Source: a candidate division FCPU426 bacterium
Lineage (GTDB): Bacteria > Oederibacteriota > Muellerivitia > Muellerivitales > Muellerivitaceae
Reading direction: 5' to 3'
Assembly (NCBI GenBank): GCA_003152075.1
Contig: PLZG01000093.1
Location: forward strand, 15,445 to 79,444
DNA: 64,000 bases
The translations under genes were made by a program, and so were the position numbers. This document shows positions 4,634-58,688 of this stretch, piece by piece (the first letter of the stretch is position 1; each line of letters opens with the position of its first letter). A model generated the notes under the pieces. It had not been told where the DNA came from, did not search any database, and saw only the letters and a program-made list of their open reading frames with translations.

Positions 4634-4666
4634 AAAGACCGGTCCCGGACCGGCTTTTTGTTTTTA
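4634..4666 (+). terminator. Rho-independent terminator after cytochrome c paralogue 2
   Basis: GACCGGTCCcGGACCGGC hairpin followed by TTTTTGTTTTT. Confidence 0.6.
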
Positions 4667-5229: not shown

Positions 5230-5239
5230 GGAGAGATTA

Positions 5240-8249: not shown

Positions 8250-8434
8250 TTTCCCTCCTGAAAAACAGGGGATTCTCTTAATTTATTATCCCTTTTGAAC
8301 TAAAAGCTCATTATGAGTTGAGTCATAAAAAAGACCTCGGCCCTGCCCTATGATGAAAATGAACGGAAGAAAGATTGGATTCGAAACGAATTGAAATCGC
8401 TTGCAGCCTTCCGGATTTTTTCAACAAGGAGCAC

Positions 8435-14310: not shown

Positions 14311-14311
14311 A

Positions 14312-14614: not shown

Positions 14615-14629
14615 TGATTCCTCCTGGGG

Positions 14630-20542: not shown

Positions 20543-20731
20543 TTATTTTTCGGGCCAGGGTGTGTTCTTATCCCTCCCGCTTTCCCGCGATGGATTGGAA
20601 AGGCTTTCCTCGTCGTCGGCAAAACGAACTTTTCCCCGTAGGACGCACCCTTTCATTCCGGGGACACAATCCCTGTTTGCCCTTTGGCAAAAATAATCCC
20701 CCGTTTGATAGGGGCATGACCAACTGGACAT
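20543..20731 (-). CDS. Small Cys4 protein (62 aa), paralogue A
   Basis: WSCPYQTGDYFCQRANRDCVPGMKGCVLRGKVRF: a C-x8-C-x6-C-x5-C core conserved with 53834..54043 (WSCRYQSGESYCDRVRVGCIPGMLGCALRGKVRF). Divergent from the Crp/Fnr gene. Confidence 0.45.
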   Translation of the reverse strand: MSSWSCPYQTGDYFCQRANRDCVPGMKGCVLRGKVRFADDEESLSNPSRESGRDKNTPWPEK

Positions 20732-20805
20732 GGATTCCGTTCCTTAAGCGCGGGCTTTTAAGTCACCCGACAGTGACATTCTTGAGCGAATCGGTTTCGG
20801 CCTAT

Positions 20806-21486: not shown

Positions 21487-22206
21487 CCTTTCCCCAGCCA
21501 ATTTTTCCGCCATCGGAAAAAGTACGTTGTTTTCCAAATGGATGTGGTGATGCAGGTCCTCTTCCAGTTCAATGAAAGCCTGGTAAAAAGACCGGAAAGT
21601 GACGCAAGCGTCATCGGGCGGTGTAAAGTTCCCTGTCAATCGGCGCGCTTCCCTCAATTGTTCCCCTACCGTCTCGTGGTCAGCCATGAGAACAGCCCGG
21701 GGCCCCGCTTGGAATCCCTCAAAGGGGAAGAAAAGGCCTTCGTCACCTTCACCTTTTACCGATTTCTCCAAGGCCAAAAGATAGGGGAAGGCGATCTGTT
21801 CTTCTTTTAACATGTGGTGTTCCAATTCGTCGGCCATTTGGATGAAAACCTTTCGAACCGCCAAGAGGTCAGGATGGTTTTGTCCGTGAACCCGGGCCAC
21901 CTTTTCGGACAGTTTGTCGAGTAGGGCCAATTGCTTGCGGGTATAAACATGATGTTTTTCCAGAAGAAACTCCACCAACTCGGAAAGTTTTCGCTCGCTC
22001 CAGTCTTGTTCTCTCGAAGGGGATACAGGAAGACTCTCCAAGGAACGGACCACCTTTTCCACCGAAGCCCCCGCCTTGTCGCAAGCGTCCTTTAACGTCT
22101 TATTCCCCCCACAGCAGTAATCGATTTTCAAGCCTTCGAACAAAGGAATGGCGGACGGGTACTGAATCACGATACTGGCCACTGTTTGGTTGACTTCAGC
22201 TTTCAT
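21463..22206 (-). CDS. ytfE: Iron-sulfur cluster repair di-iron protein (RIC / YtfE / ScdA family)
   Basis: N-terminal ScdA_N motif (..FEGLKIDYCCGG..) followed by a hemerythrin-like di-iron domain (H..E/HxxxE ligands). Paralogous to 50710..51444. Convergent with the Crp/Fnr gene. Confidence 0.8.
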   Translation of the reverse strand: MKAEVNQTVASIVIQYPSAIPLFEGLKIDYCCGGNKTLKDACDKAGASVEKVVRSLESLPVSPSREQDWSERKLSELVEFLLEKHHVYTRKQLALLDKLSEKVARVHGQNHPDLLAVRKVFIQMADELEHHMLKEEQIAFPYLLALEKSVKGEGDEGLFFPFEGFQAGPRAVLMADHETVGEQLREARRLTGNFTPPDDACVTFRSFYQAFIELEEDLHHHIHLENNVLFPMAEKLAGERSTSGVTA

Positions 22207-27200: not shown

Positions 27201-27839
27201 GTGGTCCGGATTCATCGCCCTTAAGCGGGAGGGAGCTGTTCTTTCTGGACCCACCATGGCCTGTAGAACCTCATCTCCAATAAGCTTCACTTTTGTTACT
27301 TCGTGGGAAGTGCGAAAACCATCGAAGAAATGGATGAAAGGAAGGCGTGACTCCAGGGTGGCGGCCTGGGCGATCAGCGCGAAGTCCCCGGCCTCCTGGC
27401 CTGAATTGGAACAAAGCATGCCGAATCCCGTGCCCCGGCAGGCCATGACATCGCTATGGTCGCCAAAAATGGAAAGGGCCTGGTAGGCCAGGGACCGGGC
27501 CGTGACGTGGAAAACCGCGGGGGTCAACTCGGCGGCAATCTTGAAAAGGTTTGGGATCATCAGGAGCAGGCCCTGGGAAGCCGTAAAGGTGGTGGTAAAG
27601 GCCCCGGTTTGAAGGGCCCCATGGGCGGCGCCCGCCGCGCCTCCCTCGGATTGCATTTCCATGATCGTCGGGACAACGCCCCAAAAGTTCAAACGGCCCC
27701 CGGCGGCCCATTCATCGCAATATTCCGCCATGCCCGAGGAAGGGGTGATAGGATAGATGGATATCACTTCGTTCAAGCGGTAAGCCACATTGGCCACAGC
27801 CTCGTTTCCATCGATCGTCGTGAATAAGGAATCCTCCAT
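24219..27839 (-). CDS. nifJ: Pyruvate:ferredoxin (flavodoxin) oxidoreductase, single-polypeptide form
   Basis: About 1200 aa. Two ferredoxin-type CxxCxxCxxxCP motifs (CIQCNKCVAVCPHAV, CTGCALCVDVCPVKS). C-terminal TPP-binding GGDGWAYDIG. RBS AGGAGA sits before the Met at 27839, and the start was trimmed from the track ORF accordingly. Confidence 0.95.
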   Translation of the reverse strand: MEDSLFTTIDGNEAVANVAYRLNEVISIYPITPSSGMAEYCDEWAAGGRLNFWGVVPTIMEMQSEGGAAGAAHGALQTGAFTTTFTASQGLLLMIPNLFKIAAELTPAVFHVTARSLAYQALSIFGDHSDVMACRGTGFGMLCSNSGQEAGDFALIAQAATLESRLPFIHFFDGFRTSHEVTKVKLIGDEVLQAMVGPERTAPSRLRAMNPDHPVLRGSTQNPDVFFQGRERANSFYLAVPGIIQKAMDQFARLTGRAYKIYEYHGAPDAERVIVMMGSGAETAHETVDYLQAEGEKVGLLKVRLYRPFDALSFVSALPLGVKSIAVLDRTKESGSMGEPLYLDVLTALSETITAGKAPMKSMPRIIGGRYGLSSKEFTPAMVLGLFDHLKEKSLKGHFTLGINDDVTHTSLPYDEHLSIEPPEVKRALFFGLGSDGTVGANKNTIKIIGENTDLWAQGFFVYDSKKSGSMTTSHLRFGPKSIRSTYLVQQADFVACHQPVFLNRIDMLKDLQPGGSFLLNSASPFEAVWESLPQIVQGHLLAKKAKFFVIDADTVAKQAGMGNRINTIMQVCYFALSGVLPREEAIKAIKKSIEKTYKRKGEKIVNANLQAVDTTLAHLHEVSLAGRKAGVTPFRKAVPDNAPSFVQKVVAAIIRGEGDSLPVSAFPEDGTYPTATAHFEKRDIALEIPVWDEQICIQCNKCVAVCPHAVIRPKVYEPSLLAQAPESFKTAVAKHRDWKGMNYTLQVAPEDCTGCALCVDVCPVKSKTDSTHKAVNMKVQASLVEKEIKNWDFFLTLPEVDRSKINLDMLSQQQFQQPLFEFSGACAGCGETPYIKIVSQLFGDRMLVANATGCSSIYGGNLPTTPWAVNGQGRGPTWCNSLFEDNAEFGLGFRISLDHQTKTATSLLNRLEKEVGKELVESLLKAVQKTDADIEAQRARVSQLKEILKGIPKPEAMELLRLADNLVKKSVWIMGGDGWAYDIGYGGLDHVISTGRNVNILVLDTEVYSNTGGQASKSTPKGAVAKFAAGGKAQAKKDLGLMAMTYGNVYVARVALGANDGQVLKALREAEAFDGPSIVIAYSHCIAHGYDLVNGLKQQKGAVDSGQWVLYRYNPEKMAVGVNPLTVDSGPLKISVKEYEMQENRFKSLTLTKPEEAQKYFEQAQAEAQQRWNYYQYLSKLDPKAFTAGVAAVAQTAPPSVIEKG

Positions 27840-27884
27840 GAACTCTCCTAAAAATAAACCCTCGCCCATTGGCCTTGGTTTTGC

Positions 27885-28009: not shown

Positions 28010-30343
28010 TCAATAACTTTCCGCTTCCTTGCCCAACCTGGCCGAAACAGGCTTCTTGCTTTGACGGTAGCTCCAGATGAGGGCCGCGACCAATAAAACC
28101 ACTATCGACCAACCGACCATTCCCAAAGTTGGATACTGCACCACAATGGGCGCGATGATGACCGAGATCAGGTTGACCACTTTGATCATGGGGTTCAAGG
28201 CTGGACCGGCCGTATCCTTCAAGGGATCCCCTACCGTATCGCCCACCACGCTGGCTTTGTGACGGTCCGAGCCCTTGCCGGTATTACGGGCCGGGTTTCT
28301 CGCCTCATCCTCGATAGCTTTCTTGGCATTGTCCCAGGCCCCGCCCGCGTTTGACATGAAGACCGCTAAAAGCTGGCCGGACAAGATGACGCCCGCCAGG
28401 AATCCGCCTAGGGCTTCCACCTGCAGGAGTAACCCCACCAAAATAGGGGTCAACACACCGAGCAATGCCATGCTGATCAACTCATGCTGGGCCGCGTAGG
28501 TACAAATGGTAACCACATGGTGATAATTGGGCTTCACCTTGCGGGTGAGAACTCCCGCTTTAAACTGTTTACGGACCTCATCCACGATCAAGGCCGCCGC
28601 CCGGCCAACGGCTTTAAGGGCAAAAGCGGAAAAGAGCCAGGGCAGTCCCCCGCCGATGAGCATCCCGATCAAAACCTGCGGATTGGAAACCCGAATACCG
28701 ATCGACACCAATTGTTCCGAGAGGGGCACCTTCATCATTTCCTGGACCGCGCTGACGTTCACGATAAAAGAACCGAAAAGCGCAACCGCCGCGATGACGG
28801 CCGACCCGATGGCCACCCCCTTGGTAACGGCCTTGGTGGAATTGCCTGCCTGATCTAAACCCGTCAAGACCTTGCGGGCTTCCACGGTGACCTTGTCCTT
28901 GCGGTCGCCCCAGGCCATTTCGCCGATGCCGCTGGCGTTATCCGAGATGGGCCCGAAGGAATCCATGGCCACGTTATCGCCGGTGAGGGTCAACATGCCG
29001 ATACCGGTGAGGGCCACACCATATAAGATATAAGTTAGGCGTTCGGCCGCCAGCATTCCCGGGATGGTACCAAAGATGGCCACCGAAACCATGAGGGTGA
29101 CGGCGATAAGGATAATGGCCCAAAAGGTGGATTCAAAACCCACCGACAACCCCGTAATAATTGTCGTCGCCGCTCCGGTATGGGTGGCATCCTTGATCTC
29201 GTTGACCGGGCCCCGCTCCACCTCGGTGAAATAGCTGGTCAGGAAGAAAAGACCAACAGCCAAAGCCACACCCAGGGCGGTCGCCAGCACCGGCCTCCAC
29301 CAGCCGAAGGGCACACTTTGAAGATAGAAGTAGCCAATCAAGCCAAAAAAGAAGACCGAGTTCACGGCGGATATCAGGAAGCCCCGAAGGATAGGGATCA
29401 TGGCGTTGCCCTTGTCCGAGGGACTCGCCTTGACCAAATAGGTTCCTAAAATGGAGGACATGACGCCTACGGCCCGCACCATCAGGGGGAATACCACCCA
29501 CTCCATGCGGCCCGTCAACTGATACAGCGCCAGCCCCAAGATCAATCCTGAAACAATGGTCACCTCATAAGACTCAAAAATATCAGCCGCCATACCGGCG
29601 CAGTCTCCCACATTGTCCCCCACCAGGTCGGCGATAACCGCTGGGTTTCTTGGATCGTCCTCGGGTATACCCGCCTCGATTTTACCCACCAAGTCCGCCC
29701 CAACGTCAGCGGCCTTCGTATAGATACCCCCGCCCACCCTCATGAAAAGGGCAATCAGCGTGCCGCCGAACCCAAAACCCAAAAGCGCGTCAGGGGCCGC
29801 CACTCCCAAAACCATGAAAATAACCGTGCCGCCCAAGAGGCCCAAACCATCGGTGAGCATTCCCGTGAAGGTCCCAGCCCGATAGGCGATGCGCAACGCT
29901 CCGGGAAAGCCTTTGCGGGAAGCCTCGGCCACCCGGACGTTGGCCTGCACCGCCATGCGCATACCCAACTGGCCCACCGCCAGGGAAAAGCCGGCGCCTA
30001 GGAGGAAAGCGAAGGCGCGGGCCAGTCCGATATAAAGCCGGATGTCCTCGGGACTCAAATGGGGAAAACGTAAGAGGGCGTCCTTGGAGGGGGGAACGAT
30101 ATAGACGGAATAAAAAAGGGCAAAAGTTAAGAGGACCATCAAGGGGAGGATGCTTTTCAATTGGCGGCTCAAATAAGCCTTTGCTCCCTCCTCGATAGCC
30201 GCCCAGACTTTCCGCATATCCCCGTCACCCGTGGGTTCCAAAAGAACGTGGCTTCGAAGGTAATAGGCGTAGGCAAGGCCTAAGAGGGAAACCCCCAGGA
30301 TGATCCAAAGGGAGTACTGCTCGAGAAGTGTAAGGCCTTGCAT
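28010..30343 (-). CDS. hppA: Membrane-bound proton (or sodium)-translocating pyrophosphatase
   Basis: 777 aa, about 16 TM. Conserved [20 protein letters not shown] and [11 protein letters not shown] motifs of V-type H+-PPases. Confidence 0.95.
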
Positions 30344-43212: not shown

Positions 43213-43232
43213 TATATGACATCTGTCATATA
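43213..43232. promoter_or_regulatory. Perfect 20-bp palindrome TATATGAC-atct-GTCATATA about 67 bp upstream of the cupredoxin operon
   Basis: 8-N4-8 inverted repeat with TGAC-N4-GTCA core. It is the best-conserved instance of the motif found upstream of both RIC genes and pirin. Confidence 0.5.
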
Positions 43233-43298
43233 GAGATAAATGAAGCGGGGATATCTTTCTGGCAGCCGAACTCAGTTTTTAATAAAAGGAGATTTCCA

Positions 43299-43997
43299 AT
43301 GAAGCTTAAAAAAAGTTTAATAAAAGCCGGAAGCAAAAAAACTCTTCGGACTTTATTCGGCGAGCTGTCCATCGGATTGGGGCTGAGCCTCTTCCTGGCC
43401 TCTTTCGCTTTCGCTGGGGAAGGTGCCACAGTATCCGGAAACATCCAAGTGAAGAAAGCCTACGTGGAAACCACCGGGGCCAAGAGCGACAAGGACGTGG
43501 TGGTTTACCTGGTGTCGGCTGAGAAAGGCGCTTCAGCGGCCCCCGTCGAACACGCCAAAATGAACCAAAAAAACCTCGTTTTCGTACCTCACGTTCTGGC
43601 AGTTCAAAAGGGCACCACCGTCGATTTCCTCAACGAGGACGCCGTCAACCATAACGTCTCTTCCCCCGCCGCCTGCTGTTCCTTCGACCTGGGCCAATGG
43701 GGCAAGGGAGTGACAAAAAGCTATAAGTTCGACTCGACGGGCGTGGCTCCCCTCCTTTGCAGCCTGCATCCAGAAATGGCCGCCTCGGTAGTGGTTGTCG
43801 ACACCCCCTATTACACGACGGCCTCCCTTATCACCAACAACGCGGAAAAAAAGCAATCGGCCAAGTACTCCATCAAGGGCGTTCCAGCGGGTGATTACAC
43901 CTTGAAGGTATGGAATGGCAAGTTGGTAGCCGCCGATCAAAAGGTGACCGTCACCGCGACCGGCGCCAAGGCTGATATCGACATCCACAAGAAGTAA
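43299..43997 (+). CDS. Periplasmic type-1 (blue) copper cupredoxin with C-terminal carboxypeptidase-regulatory-like (Ig-like) domain
   Basis: RBS AAAGGAG 7 nt before the ATG. Signal peptide. T1Cu ligand set: His (..NEDAVNHNV..) then C-x2-H-x2-M (CSLHPEM, amicyanin/pseudoazurin-like spacing). The C-terminus has a GDYTLKVWNG beta-sandwich motif. Confidence 0.6.
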   Translation: MKLKKSLIKAGSKKTLRTLFGELSIGLGLSLFLASFAFAGEGATVSGNIQVKKAYVETTGAKSDKDVVVYLVSAEKGASAAPVEHAKMNQKNLVFVPHVLAVQKGTTVDFLNEDAVNHNVSSPAACCSFDLGQWGKGVTKSYKFDSTGVAPLLCSLHPEMAASVVVVDTPYYTTASLITNNAEKKQSAKYSIKGVPAGDYTLKVWNGKLVAADQKVTVTATGAKADIDIHKK

Positions 43998-44024
43998 TCG
44001 GGAAAACCGTAAAGGAGAGCGGCC

Positions 44025-44564
44025 ATGGACTTCACGAATAAAGGCAAATGGATTTCGGCGGTGCTGGTGGTGGTGGCAGGGCTGACCCTGCCGGCCTTCA
44101 CCACGCCGGCCGCTCCCAAACCCGAGCGCCGCGACTTCAGCATCGTGGCCCGCAAGTACGCCTACGACCCCCCGATCATCAAGGTCAACCAGGGGGACGA
44201 GGTGCACGTAAAATTCGCTTCTCGGGACGTGACCCACGGATTTTTCATGGAAGGCTACGATGTCGAAGCCCTTTCCGAGGCCGGCAAATCCACCATCCTC
44301 TTCCGGCACCCTTCGATGACGGGTAACTTCACCCCCGCCGACGAGATCATCTTCACTGCCGATAAGCGCGGTAAATTTCGTTATCGCTGTTCCATGACTT
44401 GCGGCTATATGCACCCCTTCATGTTGGGAGTAATGATCGTGCAGCCCAATTCCCTTTTCGGCCAGGCCCTGGGGCTCATGACCGGAATCCTGCTGGCTGG
44501 CTTCATCCTGGTTTGGCCCGCGGGTAAGATCACCCCGAAAGCGCCGGAAGGAGCCCGCTCATGA
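44025..44564 (+). CDS. Membrane-anchored stand-alone CuA-type cupredoxin (COX2-like copper centre, no haem)
   Basis: N-terminal TM. Cupredoxin domain with His (VTHGF) and CSMTCGYMHPFM, which matches the binuclear CuA signature C-x3-C-G-x2-H-x2-M exactly. C-terminal TM. The stop overlaps the next start (ATGA). Confidence 0.55.
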   Translation: MDFTNKGKWISAVLVVVAGLTLPAFTTPAAPKPERRDFSIVARKYAYDPPIIKVNQGDEVHVKFASRDVTHGFFMEGYDVEALSEAGKSTILFRHPSMTGNFTPADEIIFTADKRGKFRYRCSMTCGYMHPFMLGVMIVQPNSLFGQALGLMTGILLAGFILVWPAGKITPKAPEGARS

Positions 44565-45028
44565 CCCGCAAACTTGAGGAACTCTCCCCTAAGGAAATGC
44601 TGGCCCTGGCCATTTCCATCGAGCAGTCCAACCAAAAGGCCCTGCATAACTTCTCCGAGATGTTCAACGGATATGACGATCAGGTTTCCAAGAATTTCGC
44701 GGAAATGTCCGTGGAGGAAGGCCGCCACGAGCAGATCTTACTGGAAAAATTCAAGAACATGTTCAAGGGGCCTGTTCCGGAAATAAGTAACTTCGACGTT
44801 GAGGAAGTGGTTGAAGCCATTGACTTTGACGACTCCGAGCACTTGATCTTCGACAGCTTGAAGGCCAAGCAAGTTTACCAATTGGCTTACGAGGCCGAAA
44901 AAAGGGCCAAGAGTTTTTACGAGAAGGCCATGAAAACCGTGAAAAACAAGGAATTGGCAGTGCTATTCAAGGAACTGGCCGCAATGGAAGGCGATCACGC
45001 GAATTGGCTGGAAAACAAAATCAAGTAG
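44561..45028 (+). CDS. Rubrerythrin/ferritin-like diiron protein (cytoplasmic)
   Basis: Two E...ExxH half-sites (..IEQ..EEGRH.. and ..EAEKRAK..EGDH..) in a ~150-aa four-helix-bundle-sized protein. No signal peptide. Confidence 0.6.
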   Translation: MTRKLEELSPKEMLALAISIEQSNQKALHNFSEMFNGYDDQVSKNFAEMSVEEGRHEQILLEKFKNMFKGPVPEISNFDVEEVVEAIDFDDSEHLIFDSLKAKQVYQLAYEAEKRAKSFYEKAMKTVKNKELAVLFKELAAMEGDHANWLENKIK

Positions 45029-45038
45029 GAGTGAAACC

Positions 45039-46568
45039 ATGAGTGAAGCCATCAACCCCAATCTAACTCCCCAATCCGTTCCAAGCCCGGTTCCCATACC
45101 CGCTGTCGTCCGGTCGGCCCCAACGCCGCTGACCCCTCCACCCGCCCGAGAGGGTTGGCGCATTGACCTTTTAAAGATGTTCCCCTTGCTCAAGTGGGTG
45201 GTGAAACAACGCTGGTTCCAGTTCGTGGTAATCCTTCCCAACCTATTCCTTTTCCTGGTCTTCTTGGCCGCCGGAATTTGGGGCACCCCGGTGGGCAACC
45301 GTAATATCTTGATCGTCTTCGTTTGGATTTTTTGGTGGTTCCTCCTCATCAGTGCCATGGTGCCCTTCCTTTCTCGCATTTGGTGCACCGTTTGTCCCTT
45401 CCCCTTCTTTGGAGAATGGATCCAACGTGGTTCCCTAACCACCCCCAAAATGGCCACTCCCGGCGCCAAAGGCACCAAGATTGGTATCAATCGCTATTTC
45501 GGTCTGAACCTGCGGTGGCCCAAGGCTCTTTCCAATATTTGGATGCAGAACATCGGTTTCCTCGGCCTTTGCACCTTCAGCGCCTTTTATCTCACCCGGC
45601 CCATCGTCAGCGTGATCGTCCTGGGCAGCTTGATCGTGGTGGCTACCGTGCTCCACGTGATTTATCGCCAAAGGGCCTTCTGCAATTACGTCTGTCCTGT
45701 CAGCGGTTTCTTAAGCCTTTATGCCATGAGTTCCATGACCGAGGTTCGTTCCAAGGATGCCGATGTCTGCCTGAAGTGCCACGACAAGAGCTGTCTGGTG
45801 GGAAGCGAGAGGGGTTGGGGATGTCCCTGGTTCAACTTCCCCAGCAAGATGGAACGAAATAACTATTGCGGCATGTGCATGGAATGCATTAAGTCCTGTC
45901 CCCATGACAACATGACTGTGAATCTGCGGCCCTTCGCCGCCGACACCAAACTCAAAGGCTACGATGAGGCCTGGAAGGCCTTTATCATGCTGGCCCTAGC
46001 CCTGGCCTACAGCGTCATTTACCTGGGCCCTTGGGCTTTTTTCAAAAACCTGGCCAACTACACCGAAAGCGGTGTGGGTCTTCCCGCCTTTATCGGCTAC
46101 GCCCTGGCCCTTTGGGCATTGCCTATGGTAATCATTCCGAGCATCTTCTCGGCATTCCACTGGATCGCGCGCAAGGTTGCTGGAGCCGAGCCGAAACCTT
46201 GGAAAGAATCTTTCCTACTCATGGCCTATCCCCTGGTTCCGCTGGGACTCTTGGCTTGGATCGCCTTCAGCGTACCCCTCATCTTTATCAACGGCAGCTA
46301 CATCCTGGTCACCATGTCCGATCCCTTTGGCTGGGGCTGGGACCTTTTCCATACAGCTCACACGGCCTGGTCGCCCGTCGTGCCTCAGTTGATGCCCACC
46401 ATCCAGGTCTTCATTATGGCCCTGGGGCTGATCCTCACCTTGAAATCGACTTTCAAACAAGCCGGGAAGGTTTATGAGGACGCCAAAGCCAAGGTGCGGT
46501 TCGCCGCCCCCATGGCGATTTTTTACACCGCCATCGTGCTGTTATTCATCCAGCTTTACGTGAACTGA
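45039..46568 (+). CDS. NapH/MauN/CcoG/NosR-C-like polytopic membrane protein with two [4Fe-4S] ferredoxin motifs
   Basis: Two membrane CxxCP motifs (IWCTVCPFP, FCNYVCPVSG), the hallmark of the NapH family. A soluble loop carries CLKCHDKSC...CPW and CGMCMECIKSCP cluster-binding motifs. About 10 TM helices. Pro-rich N-terminus. Confidence 0.65.
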   Translation: MSEAINPNLTPQSVPSPVPIPAVVRSAPTPLTPPPAREGWRIDLLKMFPLLKWVVKQRWFQFVVILPNLFLFLVFLAAGIWGTPVGNRNILIVFVWIFWWFLLISAMVPFLSRIWCTVCPFPFFGEWIQRGSLTTPKMATPGAKGTKIGINRYFGLNLRWPKALSNIWMQNIGFLGLCTFSAFYLTRPIVSVIVLGSLIVVATVLHVIYRQRAFCNYVCPVSGFLSLYAMSSMTEVRSKDADVCLKCHDKSCLVGSERGWGCPWFNFPSKMERNNYCGMCMECIKSCPHDNMTVNLRPFAADTKLKGYDEAWKAFIMLALALAYSVIYLGPWAFFKNLANYTESGVGLPAFIGYALALWALPMVIIPSIFSAFHWIARKVAGAEPKPWKESFLLMAYPLVPLGLLAWIAFSVPLIFINGSYILVTMSDPFGWGWDLFHTAHTAWSPVVPQLMPTIQVFIMALGLILTLKSTFKQAGKVYEDAKAKVRFAAPMAIFYTAIVLLFIQLYVN

Positions 46569-46583
46569 AAAGGGAGGATCAAC

Positions 46584-47552
46584 ATGAAATTCAGGGAAAT
46601 TATCTCCAGCGTCCTCGCGGTAGTGGCCGTGGTCGGGGCCTTCGCCATCCCCTTTGCTTACCAGAAGCAAAGAATGACCAGTGACCATAATGTGCGGACA
46701 ATCACCTTGACCGGTTTGGCCCCGCAAGGCATTTGGACCCAGGATGAGGTTAACGGCGGCAACTATTGGAAAGCCCATTTCAAACCCGCCGAGCTCAACC
46801 TTAAGGCGGGCGAACAGATCCGTCTGATCCTTCGCAGTGCCGACGTAGTCCACCGCTTTTACATGCCCCAATTGGGAATCGGCCCTATTGAGCTTGTTCC
46901 CGGCCATACCGAGGTGGTCAATTTCAAAGCCGACAAGGAGGGAATCTATCCTTACTACTGTACAGCTGTCTGCGGAGATTGCCATTTCCACATGCTAAAC
47001 ATGAGGGGATTGGTTGCCATCGGGAAAGAGATCGACACCAAAACCGCCCCCATCATCAATGAGCCTCTTTGCATGGTGAATATTACTTCGGACCTGCCTT
47101 CCTTCACGGACATCACCCAAAAGGGACATTTCCTGTTCCAAACCAGGGGTTGCGTCACTTGCCACGGGGTCGATGGCGCGGGAGGAATCCCCAACTTCAA
47201 TTACGTACGTGGTACCGTTCCGGCTTTGAACACCTTGGCCTCCAAGATGTCCCTGGGTAGCAAGGATGAAGTGGAGGCCTTTACTAAAGCCCTGGAAATA
47301 AAAGAAGGGCCCGCGAAGGACAAACCCGAACCAGGGCTCTCCAATTGGCCGCTTTCTTTCGCCCAGTATCAGTCGGTTGTAAAAACCATTGAGGGTGGCA
47401 GTCCGCCCTTGAAGGCTGACCCGAATGGGCCCGAACCTCCCCTTTTTATGCCGAGCTGGAAGGAAAACCTCGACCACGAACAGATCAATTCGATAATCGC
47501 CTTTCTTATCTCAGAGCAGAAGTTCGAGGAACACACGGGCTGGGGAAACTAG
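46584..47552 (+). CDS. Cytochrome oxidase subunit II-like CuA protein with fused C-terminal monohaem cytochrome c (caa3-type subunit II architecture, orphan)
   Basis: Single N-terminal TM. CuA signature H(RFYMP)...CTAVCGDCHFHM. C-terminal CVTCH plus Met ligand (LFMPSW). No subunit I gene is adjacent. Confidence 0.7.
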   Translation: MKFREIISSVLAVVAVVGAFAIPFAYQKQRMTSDHNVRTITLTGLAPQGIWTQDEVNGGNYWKAHFKPAELNLKAGEQIRLILRSADVVHRFYMPQLGIGPIELVPGHTEVVNFKADKEGIYPYYCTAVCGDCHFHMLNMRGLVAIGKEIDTKTAPIINEPLCMVNITSDLPSFTDITQKGHFLFQTRGCVTCHGVDGAGGIPNFNYVRGTVPALNTLASKMSLGSKDEVEAFTKALEIKEGPAKDKPEPGLSNWPLSFAQYQSVVKTIEGGSPPLKADPNGPEPPLFMPSWKENLDHEQINSIIAFLISEQKFEEHTGWGN

Positions 47553-47632
47553 TAGAATCTCGTCGGTAACCGGGCGCGGGTGGCGCGCTAATTAAAGCTG
47601 AACAGTAAATTTGTAACCTTGGGAGGGTGTAA

Positions 47633-49012
47633 ATGAGTAATCGTTCAATAAAAGCGATCCTGATCGGGATTTTAGGATGTATTGGTTTGATTGTCTGCGC
47701 GGCTCCCGCCCAGGCATTGCCAACCTTTGCCCGGCAGACAGGCATGTCCTGCGCGGCCTGCCACACGGTTTATCCCGAACTGACGACTTACGGGAGAACC
47801 TTCAAGCTCAACGGCTACACCACCAACAATTCCGATTCACTCAAGGACGGTGCGGATGAGACGGGGTACCGGTTGAATATCAGCAACACTCCCCCGATCG
47901 CGGCCATGCTTCAGGTTGCCGACGTATTTACCCATGCTCCTCAAACAGGCGGTTTAGTGGCCGCCAACTCGGATAACAACGGCACTTTGGAGTTTCCCAG
48001 TCAGTTCAGTCTTTTCTACGCGGGAGCCATCTCCCCGAAGATGGGGGCCTTCGTCCAGTTTACTTACGACTCTGGCTCAGGCTCTTTTGGCATGGACAAT
48101 ACGGACATCCGTATTGCCGACCGTTTTCAAGTGGCCAACACCGATCTGGTCTTGGGCTTAACCCTCAATAACAATCCCACCGTACAGGATATTTTTAACA
48201 ACATTCCGGCTTGGGGCTTCCCCTATGCGACAGGCAAATCGGCCATTACTCCCGCAACCGCCAGCATGATCGAGAGTCTGGGTGGTAGTGTCGGAGGATT
48301 GGGTCTTTACGCCTTTTGGAACCAGCTTTTATACGCTGAAATTTCAGCATACCGCACGGCTCCCCAAGGCATGGAAGCCGTGGGTGCCCCAGACATCCAG
48401 GGTTACGCTCCTTATTGGAGGGTGGCTTTGACCAAGGATTTCGAGACCAATTCCTTTGAAATCGGCGCTTTCGGGATGAACGCTAATACTTATCCAAACA
48501 GCGGGGATCCCACTCTGTTCACTCAAAATAATGTGGACGATATTGGGGTAGACGGTCAGTTCCAGTTCGTGGGCAAGGAACATCAATTGACGGTCAAAGG
48601 AAGTTGCATTTGGGAAAACCAGAAATTGGGCTATTCCAGTCCTGTAACGGTTATCGACCCCAGCGGACCGACGACCACCATCAGCTCAGTCGCGGCCAAT
48701 GCTACCGACACCTTCACGACCGCCAAGGCGGATATCACCTATTATTACGACCGTAAAGTCGGGGCAACGGTGGGCTATTTCACCAACTATGGTTCCGGCG
48801 ACACGGGCCTTTATTCCACCGCCAGCGGAACACCCGATAGCGCCGGCTGGGTGATCGAGGTGAATTACGTGCCTTGGTATAACACGAAATTCTCCTTGCA
48901 ATACACTATGTACGATAAGTTCAACGGTTCCGTGAATAATTACGATACCGTCCCTGGCCGTAACGCTTCGGATAACAACACCCTAATGGCAATGGCTTGG
49001 TTGATGTACTAA
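47633..49012 (+). CDS. cyc2: Cyc2-like fused monohaem cytochrome / outer-membrane beta-barrel porin (paralogue 2)
   Basis: Signal peptide. CxxCH (CAACH) within ~15 aa of the mature N-terminus. The N-terminal motif LPTFARQTGMSCAACH..TYGRTFKLNGY parallels VPMFARMYSYNCTMCH..KFGYNFRAAGY of the gene at 2219. The ~400-aa G/T/N/Y-rich barrel ends ..AWLMY. Confidence 0.6.
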   Translation: MSNRSIKAILIGILGCIGLIVCAAPAQALPTFARQTGMSCAACHTVYPELTTYGRTFKLNGYTTNNSDSLKDGADETGYRLNISNTPPIAAMLQVADVFTHAPQTGGLVAANSDNNGTLEFPSQFSLFYAGAISPKMGAFVQFTYDSGSGSFGMDNTDIRIADRFQVANTDLVLGLTLNNNPTVQDIFNNIPAWGFPYATGKSAITPATASMIESLGGSVGGLGLYAFWNQLLYAEISAYRTAPQGMEAVGAPDIQGYAPYWRVALTKDFETNSFEIGAFGMNANTYPNSGDPTLFTQNNVDDIGVDGQFQFVGKEHQLTVKGSCIWENQKLGYSSPVTVIDPSGPTTTISSVAANATDTFTTAKADITYYYDRKVGATVGYFTNYGSGDTGLYSTASGTPDSAGWVIEVNYVPWYNTKFSLQYTMYDKFNGSVNNYDTVPGRNASDNNTLMAMAWLMY

Positions 49013-49037
49013 TCTCTCTTTCAATTTTTCAGGAGAG

Positions 49038-49072
49038 AAGGCCGGGTTCCATTGGAATCCGGCCTTTTTTAT
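49038..49072 (+). terminator. Rho-independent terminator after cyc2-like paralogue 2
   Basis: AAGGCCGGGTTCCattgGGAATCCGGCCTTTTTT. Confidence 0.65.
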
Positions 49073-49135
49073 TATGACCGCTATCATCTTTTCCCTTACC
49101 TTTCAGACTAAAATGGATCTATCAGGGAGAGTTCA

Positions 49136-49798
49136 ATGGCACTAAACAAGATGACTGTCCCAAATGAAAAAAAGCGGTTCTTCACACCCTTATTAATAGA
49201 ATGGCTGGGGGCCTTGGTTTTATTCTCCTTACTCGCCCCTTCCTTAGCCTTGCCCCCGGCCCAAACTACCCCGGTAAATTCAGTCCACAAAAAAGACCCC
49301 CTTGTCTTGAAAGGCAAACAGCTTTACGCCGACTTGAGGTGCTTTTACTGCCACAAACTCAAGGGTCGGGGTGGTACGGTCGGCCCAGCCCTGGACAACG
49401 TGGGTTTCAGGCGCACCCAGGAATGGATGGCCCACCACTTCCGTGATCCCAAGGAAGTCTCTCAGGGAACCAAAATGATCAACCTCAAGCTGAAAGACAG
49501 CCAGGTTCAGGCCCTGGTGGCTTACATGAATAGCCTGGGAGGCTATACCTTCACCCCCCAAGCTCCGGATCTTTATAAAGCTAACTGTGCCGCTTGTCAT
49601 TCCCTCAACGGCGAGAGCGCGAATGCCACCGACTTGTCCAAGGAAGGAAAATTCCGGGATGTGGACTTCCTCATGGATTACATCCGGGATCCCGCCAACG
49701 TGAACTCGGAGGCCAAAATGATAAAATTTGAGGGTGTTTTGACCGAAGCCCAAATCAAGGATATCGCCGCTTACCTTTACAAGCAGAGCCGCAAATAA
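49136..49798 (+). CDS. Periplasmic dihaem cytochrome c (c4-like)
   Basis: Signal peptide; CFYCH and CAACH. About 45% identical over its length to the C-terminal domain of the cytochrome b at 5743..7374 (shared ..KGRGGTVGPALDNVGFRRTQEWMAHHFRDPKEVSQGTKM..). Confidence 0.8.
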   Translation: MALNKMTVPNEKKRFFTPLLIEWLGALVLFSLLAPSLALPPAQTTPVNSVHKKDPLVLKGKQLYADLRCFYCHKLKGRGGTVGPALDNVGFRRTQEWMAHHFRDPKEVSQGTKMINLKLKDSQVQALVAYMNSLGGYTFTPQAPDLYKANCAACHSLNGESANATDLSKEGKFRDVDFLMDYIRDPANVNSEAKMIKFEGVLTEAQIKDIAAYLYKQSRK

Positions 49799-49974
49799 AG
49801 GCGGTTTTCAATCCGCTAAATGATCTGGATCATATTCCCCTTTTCCGCGAAACATTAGGATACAACCTGTATTGCAGTTCGGGACCAAAACCCCGAGCTT
49901 GAACGGCGGAAAAGTATCAAATAAAAAAGGAGGCGGTCTTAACCAAAGTTAAAATCGACTCTGTTGGAATTTGG

Positions 49975-50015
49975 AAAACAAGGCCGGACCTGGCAAGGCT
50001 CCGGCCTTTTCTTTT
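49975..50015. terminator. Bidirectional intrinsic terminator
   Basis: aaaacaAGGCCGGAcctggcaaggcTCCGGCCttttctttt, flanked by an A-run upstream and a T-run downstream. Confidence 0.6.
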
Positions 50016-50709: not shown

Positions 50710-51444
50710 CTAATCTAAAAAACCCATCTGATTGGCCCGCTTCAAGAGAATGTTATTCTCCAAGTGGAGATGTTGAATGTTGTCTTTTTCCAGTTCCAGG
50801 AGGGCATCATAAAGGGGCTGGAGCATCATCCGCCTGGATTCGGGCGCGCGAAAATGGTCGGTGAGCCGGTCGATTTCCTTCCATTCCCTGTCCGTCATTC
50901 CATGCTCCCACTCCAACACGCGCAAGGGATGGTTGAAGGAGTCGTATTTACTGAAAGTTTGGGGAAGGGGCCGGTCGTGCAGAAGGCACTGTTCTGCTTC
51001 AATTAAGTAAGGAAAGACCACCTCTTCTTCGCGCCTCAAGTGGTTCTCCATTTCATCGGCCATAGTGTTGAAAAGACTATGGATGGTGGCTAGTTCGGGG
51101 GGCGGCCCCCCGGGACCCGTAACCACCTTATACATCAGACCTTTGACACGCCTCATTTGGGACCGAGCGTAGGTGTGGTGTTTCTTGAGGATGTAACCGA
51201 TCAGCTCAGCTAGTGGTTCCTGTCGCCAGTCCCGCTCCTTATACCATTCCTTTGGGGCAGGCTCGATTTTTTCCAGGGCCTCGGTAACCTCCTCCAATGG
51301 GATGCCGACGTAATAACAAGCGTCTTTCAAAGTCCGACCGCCCTCACAGCAATAGTCGATCCCGAATTTCTCGAATAGGGGGATGGACTCCTTCATTTCC
51401 ACCGCAATTTCAGCGACGCTTTGGGATGGATTAATCTTCGCCAT
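50710..51444 (-). CDS. ytfE: Iron-sulfur cluster repair di-iron protein (RIC/YtfE family), paralogue B
   Basis: N-terminal ..FEKFGIDYCCEGG.. ScdA_N motif plus a hemerythrin-like domain. Collinear with 21463..22206. Confidence 0.8.
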   Translation of the reverse strand: MAKINPSQSVAEIAVEMKESIPLFEKFGIDYCCEGGRTLKDACYYVGIPLEEVTEALEKIEPAPKEWYKERDWRQEPLAELIGYILKKHHTYARSQMRRVKGLMYKVVTGPGGPPPELATIHSLFNTMADEMENHLRREEEVVFPYLIEAEQCLLHDRPLPQTFSKYDSFNHPLRVLEWEHGMTDREWKEIDRLTDHFRAPESRRMMLQPLYDALLELEKDNIQHLHLENNILLKRANQMGFLD

Positions 51445-54577: not shown

Positions 54578-55279
54578 TTATCCAGGCAGGTCAAAGTAAA
54601 GAAAGTGGGAATCCTTCTCAGCTAGAACGTTAAAGGAGTTTTCCTCCCAAATGGCAAGTCCGTCACCTTCGGAAAGCTTCTGGTCGCCGACCTTCAATTC
54701 GCCGCTGGCCAATTGAATCCAGCCTTTGCGATCCCAATGCAGGGTCAGGTCCAGCTTCGTCCCGGCCGTGGGCCGAGCCAAGTATAAATTAGCGTCCTGA
54801 TTGAGGGTAATGGACCCTTCCCGACCGTCCTTGGAGGCCGCCAGAAAGAGATTTCCTGTAGCTAATTCCTTCGAAAAATCCTTTTGTGCGTAGCCGGGCT
54901 TCAGACCGTCCTCCGCCGGCATGATCCAAATCTGAAAAAAGTGCGTTTCCTGGTCCTTCAAGTGGTTATGCTCCGAATGCCTTACCCCCGTTCCGGCGCT
55001 CATGCGCTGTACTTCCCCAGGCAAAATGGTTGATGCCGTTCCCATGGAATCCTTGTGATCCAGGGCCCCGTTTAAGACGTAAGAGATGATTTCCATGTCC
55101 CGATGACCGTGGGTGGGGAAGCCCGTCCCCCCCTGGATACGGTCCTCATTGATCACCCGCAAATCGCCGAATCCCATTTCGGTTTTGTCAAAGTACTCGC
55201 CAAATGAAAAGGTATGCCGGGACTTGAGCCATCCCATGTCGGTCAAACCGCGTTTGTCGGACTGCCTGAGTGTCATCAT
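54578..55279 (-). CDS. Pirin-family bicupin protein
   Basis: N-terminal cupin metal site ..GFPTHGHRDMEIISYVLNGALDHKDSMG.. (HxH...E...H). Both cupin domains are present. Start set at MMTLRQ. Confidence 0.85.
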   Translation of the reverse strand: MMTLRQSDKRGLTDMGWLKSRHTFSFGEYFDKTEMGFGDLRVINEDRIQGGTGFPTHGHRDMEIISYVLNGALDHKDSMGTASTILPGEVQRMSAGTGVRHSEHNHLKDQETHFFQIWIMPAEDGLKPGYAQKDFSKELATGNLFLAASKDGREGSITLNQDANLYLARPTAGTKLDLTLHWDRKGWIQLASGELKVGDQKLSEGDGLAIWEENSFNVLAEKDSHFLYFDLPG

Positions 55280-55371
55280 ATCGGTCTCCTTTGGCCCTAG
55301 GATTAAGGAGCAGGCCACCCTATTGCAAGCCCTGGAACAGAATGAAGGCGATGATAAATAATGACCTCCCC

Positions 55372-57992: not shown

Positions 57993-58688
57993 TTAATATC
58001 GCTGTTTCTTTTTGGAAAATAGGCGTGTCAAAAACCCCAAAATGAAACTTCTAAAAAAAGCGCCTAAACCAACAAGAACTATCCCCGCAAGAATCAGGTA
58101 AAGCGCCGTTGGGCCCAACCAAGCTTGCAGAAGCAGCCACTTCTTCCCGAAAAAATAACCGATCAGGATATAACTGCAGGAATAAACCACCGAACCCGTG
58201 AGATCGTAAAAAAGAAAGACCCGCCAGGGCATTTTCGCCATGCCCGCCAATAAATTCGCCAGGATGGGCGGAAGCAGGGCGATGAACCGCGCGATAAAGA
58301 CCGCCTTGGGACCATGGCGTTTGAAAAAGCCTTCAACCCTTCCCACCCTTTCGGGCGTGAGATGGAGCCATCGGATTTTCTTCAACCCGCTATTGCCCAA
58401 CCGCCTCCCCAGCCAAAAAGCCACAATGCCGCCCAGGAAACAGGCCGCCGTCCCTGCGATCATGGGTGGCCACAACGAAAACCCGTGTTTTCCTAGGATG
58501 AATCCCGCCGCTAAAAGGGTCGTGTCACCCGGCAGGGGAATCCCAATGTTGTTCAAAAACTCGATGAGAAAGACGAGCACATACCCGTAATGGGGGAAAT
58601 GAGGCAGTAAAGAATGGAGCCATTGGACCATAGTCCCCCCAGGATAAGCCCATCGGCGGTTAAAAACATGACCAGAGTCATAAGTCAT
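57993..58688 (-). CDS. DedA / SNARE-associated-domain family membrane protein
   Basis: ..FLIEFLNNIGIPLPGDTTLLAAGFILGKHG.. re-entrant loop motif typical of DedA. Confidence 0.8.
   Translation of the reverse strand: MTYDSGHVFNRRWAYPGGTMVQWLHSLLPHFPHYGYVLVFLIEFLNNIGIPLPGDTTLLAAGFILGKHGFSLWPPMIAGTAACFLGGIVAFWLGRRLGNSGLKKIRWLHLTPERVGRVEGFFKRHGPKAVFIARFIALLPPILANLLAGMAKMPWRVFLFYDLTGSVVYSCSYILIGYFFGKKWLLLQAWLGPTALYLILAGIVLVGLGAFFRSFILGFLTRLFSKKKQRY

Follow-up and report, generated by a model that had tools for sequence, protein, structure and literature searches.

What is the task of an operon that encodes three copper proteins, a diiron protein, a membrane polyferredoxin and a cytochrome-porin, but no subunit I of a haem-copper oxidase? 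The question is raised by six consecutive genes, here called g1 to g6, in a 64,000-nucleotide stretch of DNA from a candidate division FCPU426 bacterium (assembly GCA_003152075.1, contig PLZG01000093.1, positions 15,445 to 79,444 of the forward strand). This whole stretch is referred to as the window, and coordinates are those of the window unless a locus is named. In order, the genes encode a blue cupredoxin (g1), a membrane-bound CuA protein (g2), a rubrerythrin-like protein (g3), a NapH-like polyferredoxin (g4), a CuA protein with a cytochrome c domain (g5) and a Cyc2-type porin (g6). A first-pass annotation, made from the sequence alone, had taken them for a candidate iron-oxidation or extracellular electron-transfer module. 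The domain identities that it gave to the open reading frames (ORFs) were borne out by comparison with Pfam and NCBIfam profiles, and profile annotation agreed that no haem-copper subunit I is encoded in the operon. We read the operon as a CuA-headed variant of the NapH/NosR type of transmembrane electron transfer, wired to Cyc2, and consider it highly probable that the products of g1-g6 form a single chain of electron carriers across the cell envelope, with g4 as its hub and without a haem-copper oxidase.

Conservation of the module

To determine the distribution of the module, loci carrying g4 homologues were collected with one genome per species, and the best 80 of 172 were analyzed. The carriers among these best 80 loci belong to Acidobacteriota, Planctomycetota, Myxococcota, Marinimicrobia/Fidelibacterota, Desulfobacterota, Binatia, Gemmatimonadota, Omnitrophota, Verrucomicrobiota, Ignavibacteria, Armatimonadota and other groups, and include a cultured isolate, Desulfoluna limicola ASN36 (Desulfobacterota). 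Gene presence was counted by tblastn in the 51 species-level loci, from more than 12 phyla, with at least 4.5 kb of sequence upstream and at least 2.5 kb downstream. Both g2 and g5 were present in all 51 loci, g1 in 44, a Cyc2-like gene in 31 and g3 in 21. The Cyc2-like gene was accompanied by g1 in every case (31/31); g3 was absent from 21 of the 31 Cyc2-bearing modules, and g3 and Cyc2 were not associated. The position of the Cyc2-like gene was upstream of g1 in 30 of the 31 loci and downstream of g5 in one, a relative of the window. These counts indicate that g2-g4-g5 form the invariant core of the module and that Cyc2 is one of several exchangeable partners.

The complete order g1-g6 was found in two relatives, whose g6 proteins are 70% and 56% identical to that of the window and whose flanking genes are unrelated. 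Since the same gene order is found between unrelated flanks, and the core in different phyla, the arrangement is beyond chance; both the synteny in other genomes and the co-occurrence with Cyc2 that the first-pass annotation had proposed to look for were found. Of 24 other genomes of the family to which the window belongs, 6 carry the module, a patchy distribution, and it occurred in none of 15 more distant genomes of the phylum. The operon is a lineage-specific rearrangement of a widespread module and not a peculiarity of the window genome.

The polyferredoxin g4

The g4 protein has four transmembrane (TM) helices with a CxxCP and a CxxxCP motif, a cytoplasmic domain with two Fe-S motifs, and five more TM helices. 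Membrane helices, CxxxCP-type motifs and two cytoplasmic 4Fe-4S motifs make up the layout of NapH/NosR-type proteins, and g4 shares it. The motifs read CTVCP, CNYVCP, C244-x2-C-x4-C...C262P, which is a non-canonical four-cysteine motif, and the canonical CGMCMECIKSCP; of the two CxxCP and two 4Fe-4S motifs initially assigned to this protein, the Fe-S motifs hold, whereas only one of the other two is CxxCP and its companion is CxxxCP. All of the motif cysteines were invariant in 15 diverse sequences, in which approximately 130 columns were invariant, and identity across phyla was 47-65%. Pfam Fer4_5 (PF12801) matched g4 with 23.2 bits against a cut-off of 22. An assignment to NapH proper was rejected on the scores of TIGR02163 (27.9 against 213) and PRK09477 (27 against 234) and on the lack of nap genes in the operon, and no family-level match to CcoG was obtained with NCBIfam-type models. 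At E <= 1e-30 the g4 family comprises 348 representative clusters (50% identity). A search of the PDB with the g4 profile gave no relative, and the ESM Atlas contained only unnamed or mis-named PF12801 clusters. The AlphaFold2 (AF2) model of g4, built on the 15-sequence alignment, had a pLDDT of 54.7, with the N-terminal half below 50.

The copper proteins g1, g2 and g5

The plastocyanin/azurin-type domain of g1 (Pfam Copper-bind, 27.7 bits, cut-off 21.2) carries the type-1 copper ligands H...C-x2-H-x2-M, and these four residues were at least 90% conserved in 56 homologues. Its C-terminal Ig-like domain resembles CarboxypepD_reg and fn3_3.

The full ligand set of a CuA centre, H...C-x3-C-G-x2-H-x2-M, was found in both g2 and g5. 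In g2 the signature is CSMTCGYMHPFM, with H72 as the further ligand, and all ligands were conserved in 54 homologues; the COX2 and NosZ CuA models of Pfam and NCBIfam match its cupredoxin domain weakly, and its closest solved relatives are the CuA domains of Thermus ba3. In g5 the signature CTAVCGDCHFHM is accompanied by H89 and by a haem c motif, CVTCH, and the closest solved relative is 2yev_B. The histidine, both cysteines and the loop histidine of g5 were conserved in 56 homologues, and the axial methionine in less than 70% of the alignment. This protein has one TM helix, not two, and in many loci it occurs as a short form, a bare CuA domain without the cytochrome c domain. The CoxB equivalog model gave 63 bits for g5 and 26 for the other CuA protein against a cut-off of 148. 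No COX1 partner for the CuA proteins was seen in the window operon or in any annotated locus, although no search specific for COX1 was made in the 51 loci. A second CxxCH of g5 (CGDCH, residues 130-134) overlaps the CuA loop and is probably not a haem site, because its extra residue, Cys133, is not conserved in the homologues.

The Cyc2-type porin g6

Proteins of the Cyc2 family have been defined by a signal peptide, a single CXXCH, the motif AXPXFAR[Q/K][T/Y] before the haem, PXL at +4, a length of at least 365 aa and a 16-strand porin (Keffer et al. 2021, PMC8406198). Fe(II)-oxidizing activity and a place in phylogenetic cluster 1, 2 or 3 are further marks of the family. The N-terminus of g6 has a hydrophobic h-region ending in AQA, as judged by eye, and the protein, of 459 aa, contains a single CxxCH (CAACH, residue 40) and ends in an aromatic residue. 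The haem region reads ALPTFARQT-GMS-CAACH-TVY-PEL and thus has both the upstream motif and PXL. A relaxed form of the motif, FA[RK][QKR][TYF] with a spacer of 2-4, was present in 104 of 120 database homologues, and P30, F32, R34, C40, C43, H44, P48 and L50 were invariant in 44 sequences. The CxxCH, on whose conservation the first-pass annotation had made the Cyc2-like identity depend, is invariant in these homologues. The AF2 model (44 homologues; pLDDT 82.5, pTM 0.81) showed a small helical N-terminal domain followed by 16 long strands, and in Foldseek it matched the 16-strand porins OmpF, OmpT and OprP (2o4v) with E values of about 1e-8 to 1e-7, OprP 2o4v being of the template class reported for Cyc2. 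By the published criteria of sequence and predicted fold g6 is a Cyc2-type protein.

The g6 family is very large (at least 3466 matches), and relatives at 44-49% identity adjoin cytochromes c and bc complexes, the classical contexts. In the Cyc2-like proteins linked to the module in other phyla the motif has the form FARKY, and the C-terminal residue is aromatic. With these proteins g6 shares 14-20% identity, against 43-72% with stand-alone Cyc2-like proteins, and therefore a different Cyc2 gene was recruited to the same module. The replacement of the upstream Cyc2-like gene by another Cyc2 at the 3' end argues that the module needs such a partner. In agreement with the first-pass annotation, the connection of Cyc2 with the copper proteins and the NapH-like protein is supported by synteny across phyla, by CuA-polyferredoxin fusions and by the constant company of g1 in Cyc2-bearing loci.

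The window contains a second, divergent Cyc2-like gene (2219-3487, + strand), which reads AVPMFARMY-SYN-CTMCH and has no PXL at +4. It is followed by genes for a cytochrome c (3502-3957), a Rieske protein (5240-5743) and a fusion of cytochrome b with a dihaem cytochrome c (5743-7374), so that the region 2219-7374 (+) has the classical cyc2/cytochrome c/bc arrangement, which was seen in locus L003 too.

The diiron protein g3 and its predicted docking on g4

Pfam Rubrerythrin matched g3 with 53.7 bits; a rubredoxin domain and a signal peptide are absent. Among the NCBIfam models it came closest to that of MbfA, an iron exporter with a ferritin-like domain to which the match extends (E = 9e-18, the score falling far short of the cut-off). 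In 23 homologues E21, E52/E53, H56, E113, E143 and H146 were invariant, and so were V83, E85, E93 and F97 in the acidic loop formed by residues 77-99.

Prediction of the complex of g3 and g4 gave a score of 0.76, compared with 0.01 for the best control. The 0.76 mark was reached by 58 of 80 solved complexes and by 2 of 110 mismatched pairs, counts that are approximate, as the alignments were self-made. The runs agreed on at least 81% of the contacts, with a partner pLDDT of at least 81. The predicted interface consists of residues 22-39 and 77-99 of g3 against residues 147-166, 242-254 and 264-276 of g4, which comprise the cytoplasmic loop and the two Fe-S motifs. The model thus predicts docking of g3 on the Fe-S domain of g4, at the place where a flavoprotein dependent on NAD(P)H is inserted in other variants of g4. 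Since g3 has no signal peptide and the flavoprotein is inserted at that place, the Fe-S domain of g4 is most probably cytoplasmic.

A protein of approximately 80 aa with eight cysteines (CxxC...CxxCxxxCxxCxC) recurs inside the module in other phyla (L008, 9114-10025; L015, 9138-10010; L082, 9717-9971; and others). Two loci encode it as a C-terminal extension of g3, and the fusion product would have the complete architecture of a rubrerythrin-like protein. This small protein was not found in the genome from which the window derives.

Fusions, variants and neighbors of the module

In Desulfoluna limicola, whose module lies at 7108-12391 of L054 (about 5.557-5.563 Mb of NZ_AP024488.1), g2 and g4 form a single ORF of 643 residues, in which the C-terminal helix of g2 continues into the N-terminus of g4. 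Many of the 50%-identity representatives of the g4 family have 610-680 aa, with the g4 match starting at residue 160-200, which is the size of a CuA-g4 fusion; of two that were scanned, one matched a cupredoxin only weakly, short of the Pfam cut-off, and the other not at all. An 818-aa protein (P0270) has a clear cupredoxin/COX2 head. Other N-terminal heads of g4 are two cupredoxins, AhpC/TSA plus cupredoxin, a cytochrome c554-like multihaem domain, YHS, and an EB_dh haem-b domain plus CuA; an AhpC/TSA-headed form gave no match to a cupredoxin domain. About 20 proteins contain a GltD-like NAD(P)H/FAD/Fe-S domain at approximately residues 235-240 of g4, inserted inside the first Fe-S motif, with both halves of g4 kept, and triple fusions of CuA, g4 and GltD exist, for example P0261 and P0271. 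In an Omnitrophota locus the GltD-inserted gene lies between g1/g2 and a short CuA gene, behind a gene for a 446-residue protein without a Pfam family, and in two metagenomic loci the gene of an EB_dh/CuA/g4 protein is the last of an operon that contains NarG-, NarH- and NarJ-like genes and stands under an Rrf2 regulator. According to these protein architectures CuA lies in the periplasm, g2 is physically tied to g4, and g4 itself is a general transmembrane redox connector with exchangeable partners.

The neighbors of the module depend on the phylum. A histidine kinase and a sigma-54 activator are encoded upstream in some, and in others YtkA-like or NosL copper chaperones occur together with an ABC/FtsX system; NosL is encoded beside the module in Desulfobacterota. 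FtrD-like, NosL, YtkA-like and YHS-domain proteins are encoded in or beside the module in other phyla. In loci of Marinimicrobia/Fidelibacterota and Terriglobia (L022, L024, L025, L039, L045 and L072) the module is followed by genes for a GltD-like NAD(P)H Fe-S flavoprotein, a Rieske protein and a split cytochrome b. Two cytochromes follow as well: one, of about 660 aa, combines four cytochrome c domains with matches to c7/c3-type multihaem proteins, and the other is a monohaem cytochrome c. These genes make up a bc-type complex with an NAD(P)H subunit, of the kind proposed for anammox bacteria. In Planctomycetota (L046, L053, L055, L064, L047 and L014) a g2-g3-g4-g5 module without Cyc2 adjoins, upstream or downstream, an AioB/AioA-like Rieske/molybdopterin pair, and these loci encode dihaem CCP/MauG-like peroxidases and a multicopper-oxidase/CCP fusion.

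Proposed electron path and its direction

Gene structure, domain and ligand conservation, synteny, fusions, the predicted docking of g3 on g4, the Cyc2 hallmarks and the regulon motif are computational results; how the centres are loaded with cofactors, in which order the carriers follow one another, where the electrons come from and which way they flow is what we infer. The hub g4, of the NapH/NosR type, would carry two Fe-S clusters facing the cytoplasm and would have as its periplasmic head the CuA centre of g2 in place of a flavinylated FMN domain. From g4, with g3 as a cytoplasmic diiron subunit on its Fe-S domain, the path would lead to g2, then to g5 with its CuA and haem c, to the soluble g1 and finally to the haem of g6, which would exchange electrons with a soluble extracellular redox species, most plausibly iron.

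As to the direction, outward flow is the reading that we favor, although we give it about an even chance. Electrons would enter at g4 from quinol or from a cytoplasmic reductant and would leave to a high-potential extracellular or periplasmic oxidant, for example organically complexed Fe(III) in acid peat, which would fit the expected potentials of the copper centres. Expression would be switched on by a CRP/FNR-type activator along with genes for hypoxia and stress, and g3 would act as a side branch that scavenges O2 or H2O2 and shields the Fe-S clusters. Reduced ferredoxin, supplied by pyruvate:ferredoxin oxidoreductase (PFOR), could be a cytoplasmic donor for g4.

The potential of CuA is approximately +250 mV and that of NAD(P)+ is -320 mV. 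The variants with the NAD(P)H flavoprotein must export electrons, because transfer from CuA to NAD(P)+ would have to overcome both a difference of more than 0.5 V and the membrane potential, and outward flow is favored since such variants can only work in this direction. It is further favored because g4 is fused to, or adjoins, the EB_dh subunit of a NarGHJ-like Mo enzyme in some variants, because strict anaerobes such as Desulfoluna carry the module, and because the operon has an FNR-like regulon. The precedents of NapH and NosR point the same way, these proteins and PceC being described as modular transmembrane donors to extracytosolic reductases (PMC8238504). Nor can g3 be the general sink, because two thirds of the Cyc2-bearing modules do without it. 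With regard to the iron-oxidation reading first given to the operon, the inserted NAD(P)H flavoprotein and the Nar-type partners point to export of electrons and not to uptake. Even the Cyc2/rusticyanin chain of Acidithiobacillus ferrooxidans is regarded as reversible, reducing Fe(III) under anoxia.

Several points weigh against outward flow and against the scheme as a whole. CuA and type-1 copper centres usually have potentials of about +250 to +350 mV, and because of this only high-potential acceptors would work. An AioAB-like arsenite oxidase, which is an electron donor, adjoins the module in Planctomycetota; a terminal acceptor in the cytoplasm, too, might take the form of a diiron protein docked on the Fe-S domain; and the haem-copper oxidases of the genome, at least five, could accept copper-borne electrons. 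In g4, for which the AF2 model is poor, neither a quinone site nor a cofactor bridging the membrane between the Fe-S clusters and CuA was identified. Contigs 90-95% identical to parts of g1-g2, g4, g5 and g7 (the gene that follows g6) were found in the soil metatranscriptome X20, and one contig of this RNA library bridges the g1-g2 junction, but the source is a relative, DNA carry-over is possible and a single transcript is not provable from contigs, so that they are a weak hint of expression and co-transcription. Finally, the only demonstrated activity of the Cyc2 family is the oxidation of Fe(II) (PMC8406198).

This last point leads to a possible, though rather doubtful, alternative in which electrons flow inward, in line with the bypass of subunit I that the first-pass annotation had suggested. 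Fe(II) would be oxidized independently of a haem-copper oxidase, with electrons passing from g6 through g1, g5 and g2 to g4 and on to g3, which would reduce O2 or H2O2 in the cytoplasm while a membrane potential is built up. Besides the verified Fe(II) oxidases among Cyc2 proteins (PMC8406198), the parallel in gene content with the rus operon, g4 taking the place of CoxA, agrees with this scheme, and so do the predicted docking of g3 on the Fe-S motifs and the invariance of its diiron ligands. The eight-cysteine partner of g3 in other phyla, if rubredoxin-like, would make the pair resemble a full rubrerythrin. The AioAB-like neighbors all occur in Planctomycetota loci that have g3, and the bc-type complexes with an NAD(P)H subunit adjoin the module in Marinimicrobia and Terriglobia as they do in lithotrophs. 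On the other hand, most Cyc2-bearing modules are devoid of g3, with which Cyc2 is not associated, the NAD(P)H-flavoprotein variants are thermodynamically unable to run inward, and the module is carried by strict anaerobes. Moreover, the genome has no RuBisCO and looks like that of a microaerophilic heterotroph with PFOR, and a classical cyc2/cytochrome c/bc set is already present at 2219-7374.

It seems improbable that the module is a new type of respiratory terminal enzyme, with neither a haem-copper nor a bd oxidase, in which electrons from extracellular Fe(II), or from periplasmic donors such as arsenite oxidase, pass one blue-copper and two CuA centres and end at g3, or that g4 splits the two electrons of quinol between a high-potential copper branch and a low-potential Fe-S branch. 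Quinol bifurcation at g4 would explain the inserted NAD(P)H flavoprotein as making NAD(P)H.

Acquisition or homeostasis of iron or copper, by a system like FtrABCD or like a ferric or cupric reductase, has a low probability. The metal would pass through the Cyc2 porin and g3 would be a ferritin-like handler of iron, a role to which its match to the ferritin-like domain of MbfA, far below the cut-off, could be related. FtrABCD pairs a cupredoxin, FtrB, with a polyferredoxin, FtrD; FtrD-like, NosL, YtkA-like and YHS proteins accompany the module in other phyla; and NADPH-driven transmembrane metal reductases are known, namely the eukaryotic FRE/NOX proteins. However, no FTR1/EfeU-type permease and no P19-like protein was found in the window operon or in L054, the two loci searched for them, and NosL and YtkA are better explained as chaperones of the CuA site. 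The palindrome before the operon is FNR-like (5-4-5) and not a Fur box, the rest of the promoter not having been searched for Fur or CsoR sites, two CuA centres and a haem c are elaborate for a simple metal reductase, and the Nar-type partners are respiratory.

Slightly less probable again is that the operon supplies accessory proteins by which a canonical haem-copper oxidase is fed or matured in trans, as the first-pass annotation had considered, with g5 as an alternative subunit II and g4 as a CcoG-like cupric reductase or assembly factor. The resemblance of g5 to subunit II of caa3, the presence of at least five subunit I genes in the genome and the nature of CcoG, a polyferredoxin cupric reductase, would agree with such a role. 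Nevertheless it finds no support in the gene content, since subunit I is encoded neither in the operon nor in the annotated loci, within the scope of the search given above. In addition, g5 has a single TM helix where two would be expected and is often a bare CuA domain, g2 and g5 have complete electron-transfer CuA sites and not chaperone motifs, g4 matches neither CcoG nor NapH at the family level, and the fusions of the module with haem-b and NAD(P)H domains indicate electron transfer.

A routine variant of a nos or cox cluster, suggested by the weak matches of the CuA domains to the NosZ and CoxB models and by NosL beside the module in Desulfobacterota, is very unlikely in a 99.97%-complete genome that has no NosZ or NosL and has a complete cox operon elsewhere, and a chance juxtaposition of redox genes is excluded by the synteny in 51 of 51 loci and by the gene fusions.

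A nos accessory cluster was dismissed, as the NosZ model matched only CuA domains, below the cut-off, and NosL was absent from the genome. A rus-type iron-oxidation operon was dismissed, as the genes shared with it are limited to those of a Cyc2-type protein, of CoxB-like CuA proteins and of a blue-copper protein of a generic kind, with coxA, coxC and coxD in the separate operon at approximately 13708-17626.

Relation to known systems

The NapH-like systems (NapH/NapGH, NosR, NosH and PceC; Meheust et al. 2021, PMC8238504) share with g4 a CxxxCP-type membrane protein with two cytoplasmic Fe-S motifs (PF12801) and an extracytosolic redox head. They are used in a modular way with different periplasmic oxidoreductases (PMC8238504), and g4 is equally modular. 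Their head, however, is an FMN domain flavinylated by ApbE, whereas that of g4 is CuA or, elsewhere, haem b, multihaem c or a thioredoxin-like domain. Unlike these systems, g4 has an additional, highly conserved C-terminal half of five helices, always travels with a second CuA protein and has cytoplasmic partners, either the diiron protein g3 or the inserted NAD(P)H flavoprotein.

The rus operon of A. ferrooxidans (cyc2-cyc1-orf-coxBACD-rus) is similar in that Cyc2, a blue-copper protein, CuA and c-type haem are encoded together. It differs in that the window operon has no CoxA, CoxC or CoxD and has a polyferredoxin and a diiron subunit in the place of the haem-copper proteins, in that g1 is an amicyanin-like cupredoxin with an Ig-like domain and not rusticyanin, and in that two CuA proteins are present. 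In the FtrABCD system of Bordetella and Brucella a periplasmic cupredoxin and a membrane polyferredoxin are found together, the polyferredoxin being the proposed electron partner in the handling of Fe(II). In contrast to FtrABCD, the window operon encodes no FTR1-type permease and no P19 protein, is not confined to mononuclear copper but includes CuA proteins, and encodes an outer-membrane cytochrome-porin, and g4 gave no match to the FtrD family.

The subunits II of the ba3 and caa3 oxidases and the CuA domain of NosZ resemble g2 and g5 in their full CuA site, the solved relatives being Thermus ba3 and caa3, but neither subunit I nor the NosZ propeller is encoded near g2 and g5 as a catalytic partner, and g2 has an additional helix at its C-terminus, which leads into g4 where the two proteins are fused. 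With rubrerythrin and erythrin, including the N-terminal domain of MbfA, g3 shares the four-helix ferritin-like fold and the ligands E / ExxH / E / ExxH; unlike rubrerythrin it lacks the rubredoxin domain and, according to the prediction, uses a conserved acidic loop (residues 77-99) for binding to the Fe-S domain of the membrane protein.

The component families and the modularity of NapH-like proteins were thus already known. What seems to be new is the CuA-headed subfamily, which extends the NapH/NosR class, its constant second CuA protein, its cytoplasmic partners and its frequent connection to a Cyc2-type porin. Cyc2 genes are widely used as markers of iron oxidation, and most of their carriers are not known iron oxidizers. 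The link of a Cyc2-type porin to an oxidase-free Cu/Fe-S module in 31 of 51 loci provides a concrete set of partners outside the classical iron oxidizers, and many cyc2 matches may report electron export, or another kind of exchange, and not lithotrophic iron oxidation. The natural fusions (CuA-g4, haem b-CuA-g4 and CuA-g4-NAD(P)H flavoprotein) are ready-made constructs for biochemistry and cryo-electron microscopy, and genetics is possible in the cultured carrier D. limicola ASN36.

The module is not described in the iron-oxidation literature searched, including a review of November 2026, or in the survey of NapH-like proteins (PMC8238504), and within these sources the combination of genes is, as the first-pass annotation had assumed, an undescribed one. 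A polyferredoxin and three hypothetical proteins of Ca. Tenderia electrophaga (Tel_00495-00510), syntenic with Mariprofundus, may be related, as judged by their description only (PMC5371394); for these organisms expression has been recorded at defined electrode potentials.

Gene organization of the operon

The coordinates of the operon and of its signals are given in Table 1.

Table 1. Genes and sequence signals of the operon region in the window
Feature	Position	Strand	Length and basis
Putative regulatory palindrome, 9-2-9, TATATGACA-TC-TGTCATATA	43213-43232		sequence symmetry
g1, type-1 (blue) cupredoxin, secreted, with C-terminal Ig-like domain	43299-43997	+	232 aa; Pfam Copper-bind
g2, CuA cupredoxin domain between N- and C-terminal membrane helices	44025-44564	+	179 aa
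g3, ferritin-like diiron protein of rubrerythrin/erythrin type, cytoplasmic	44561-45028	+	155 aa; Pfam Rubrerythrin
g4, NapH-like membrane polyferredoxin	45039-46568	+	509 aa; Pfam Fer4_5
g5, membrane-anchored CuA + monohaem cytochrome c, caa3 subunit-II-like	46584-47552	+	322 aa; Pfam COX2, Cytochrom_C
g6, Cyc2-type monohaem cytochrome-porin, outer membrane	47633-49012	+	459 aa; motifs and AF2 model
Intrinsic terminator 3' of g6	49037-49075	+	12-bp G+C-rich stem, then T6; z = -3.7 for region
g7, dihaem c4-like cytochrome c	49136-49798	+	220 aa; two Cytochrom_C domains
Second terminator-like hairpin with T-run, 3' of g7	49980-50015	+	terminator scan and folding

The intergenic gaps from g1 to g7 are 27, -4, 10, 15, 80 and 123 nt, the value of -4 being an ATGA overlap of the g2 stop and the g3 start codon. 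The tight spacing originally described for the six genes was thus confirmed (ORFs 43299-49012, gaps of -4 to 80 nt), as were the two terminators with the gene of a dihaem cytochrome between them (49037-49075, g7, 49980-50015). All of g1-g7 start with ATG, preceded at 6-9 nt by a Shine-Dalgarno sequence of the AGGAG or GGGAG type. The terminator of g6 was detected by folding; the consensus terminator scan did not flag this strong hairpin. Pfam and NCBIfam gave no family for g6 and two cytochrome c domains for g7, which has two CxxCH motifs. In relatives, cytochrome b fusion proteins have a dihaem c tail with which the g7 protein shares 48-54% identity, and the gene is absent beside the module in L001 and L002; it appears to be a loosely attached extra gene that is not conserved with the module.

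The palindrome and its putative regulon

The palindrome upstream of g1 had been described as a perfect one of 20 bp; it is a 9-2-9 repeat in which 18 of the 20 positions are symmetric. Its core, ATGAC-N4-GTCAT, has the 5-4-5 geometry of FNR/CRP-type sites and starts 83 bp before the ATG of g1. Across the 4.1-Mb genome 27 copies of this core were counted, the median of all 5-4-5 palindromes being 4; it ranks 19th, and those above it are mostly A/T runs. About 18 of the sites are intergenic, mostly 70-95 bp upstream of start codons, which are class-II-like distances. The genome encodes 6-7 regulators of the CRP/FNR family; none lies beside the operon, and the nearest is at 20560-21486.

Within the window the motif TATGAC-N4-GTCATA occurs at 51520 (RIC/ScdA gene, 50710-51444), at 55372 (pirin gene, 54578-55318) and at 58668, before a VTT/DedA gene (57993-58688) from which a 905-aa ORF diverges. 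The 23 further sites of the genome include the promoters of nitroreductase, ADH/SDR, TetR, cytochrome c and DnaK genes. Taken together, the sites look like the stress/hypoxia regulon of a CRP/FNR paralogue. The regulator gene at 20560-21486 (+) is convergent with that of a second RIC/ScdA (hemerythrin) paralogue (21463-22206, - strand), with a 3' overlap of about 24 bp, and a stand-alone hemerythrin is encoded at 8375-8941.

Host genome and habitat

The genome is 99.97% complete and contains at least five genes for subunit I of haem-copper oxidases. For NosZ it gave only matches of CuA domains below the cut-off, and NosL is absent. The canonical cox operon that had been placed elsewhere in the window was confirmed at approximately 13708-17626 and encodes COX2, COX1 and two COX3 proteins. 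PFOR is encoded at 24219-27869 (- strand) and an H+-pyrophosphatase at 28010-30343 (- strand). The host is suggested to be a microaerophilic or facultatively anaerobic heterotroph because it has PFOR, the H+-pyrophosphatase and at least five haem-copper oxidases and lacks RuBisCO; autotrophy by the Calvin-Benson-Bassham cycle was ruled out by the lack of RuBisCO in the genome. DNA nearly identical to that of the window was found in peat metagenomes from at least four studies.

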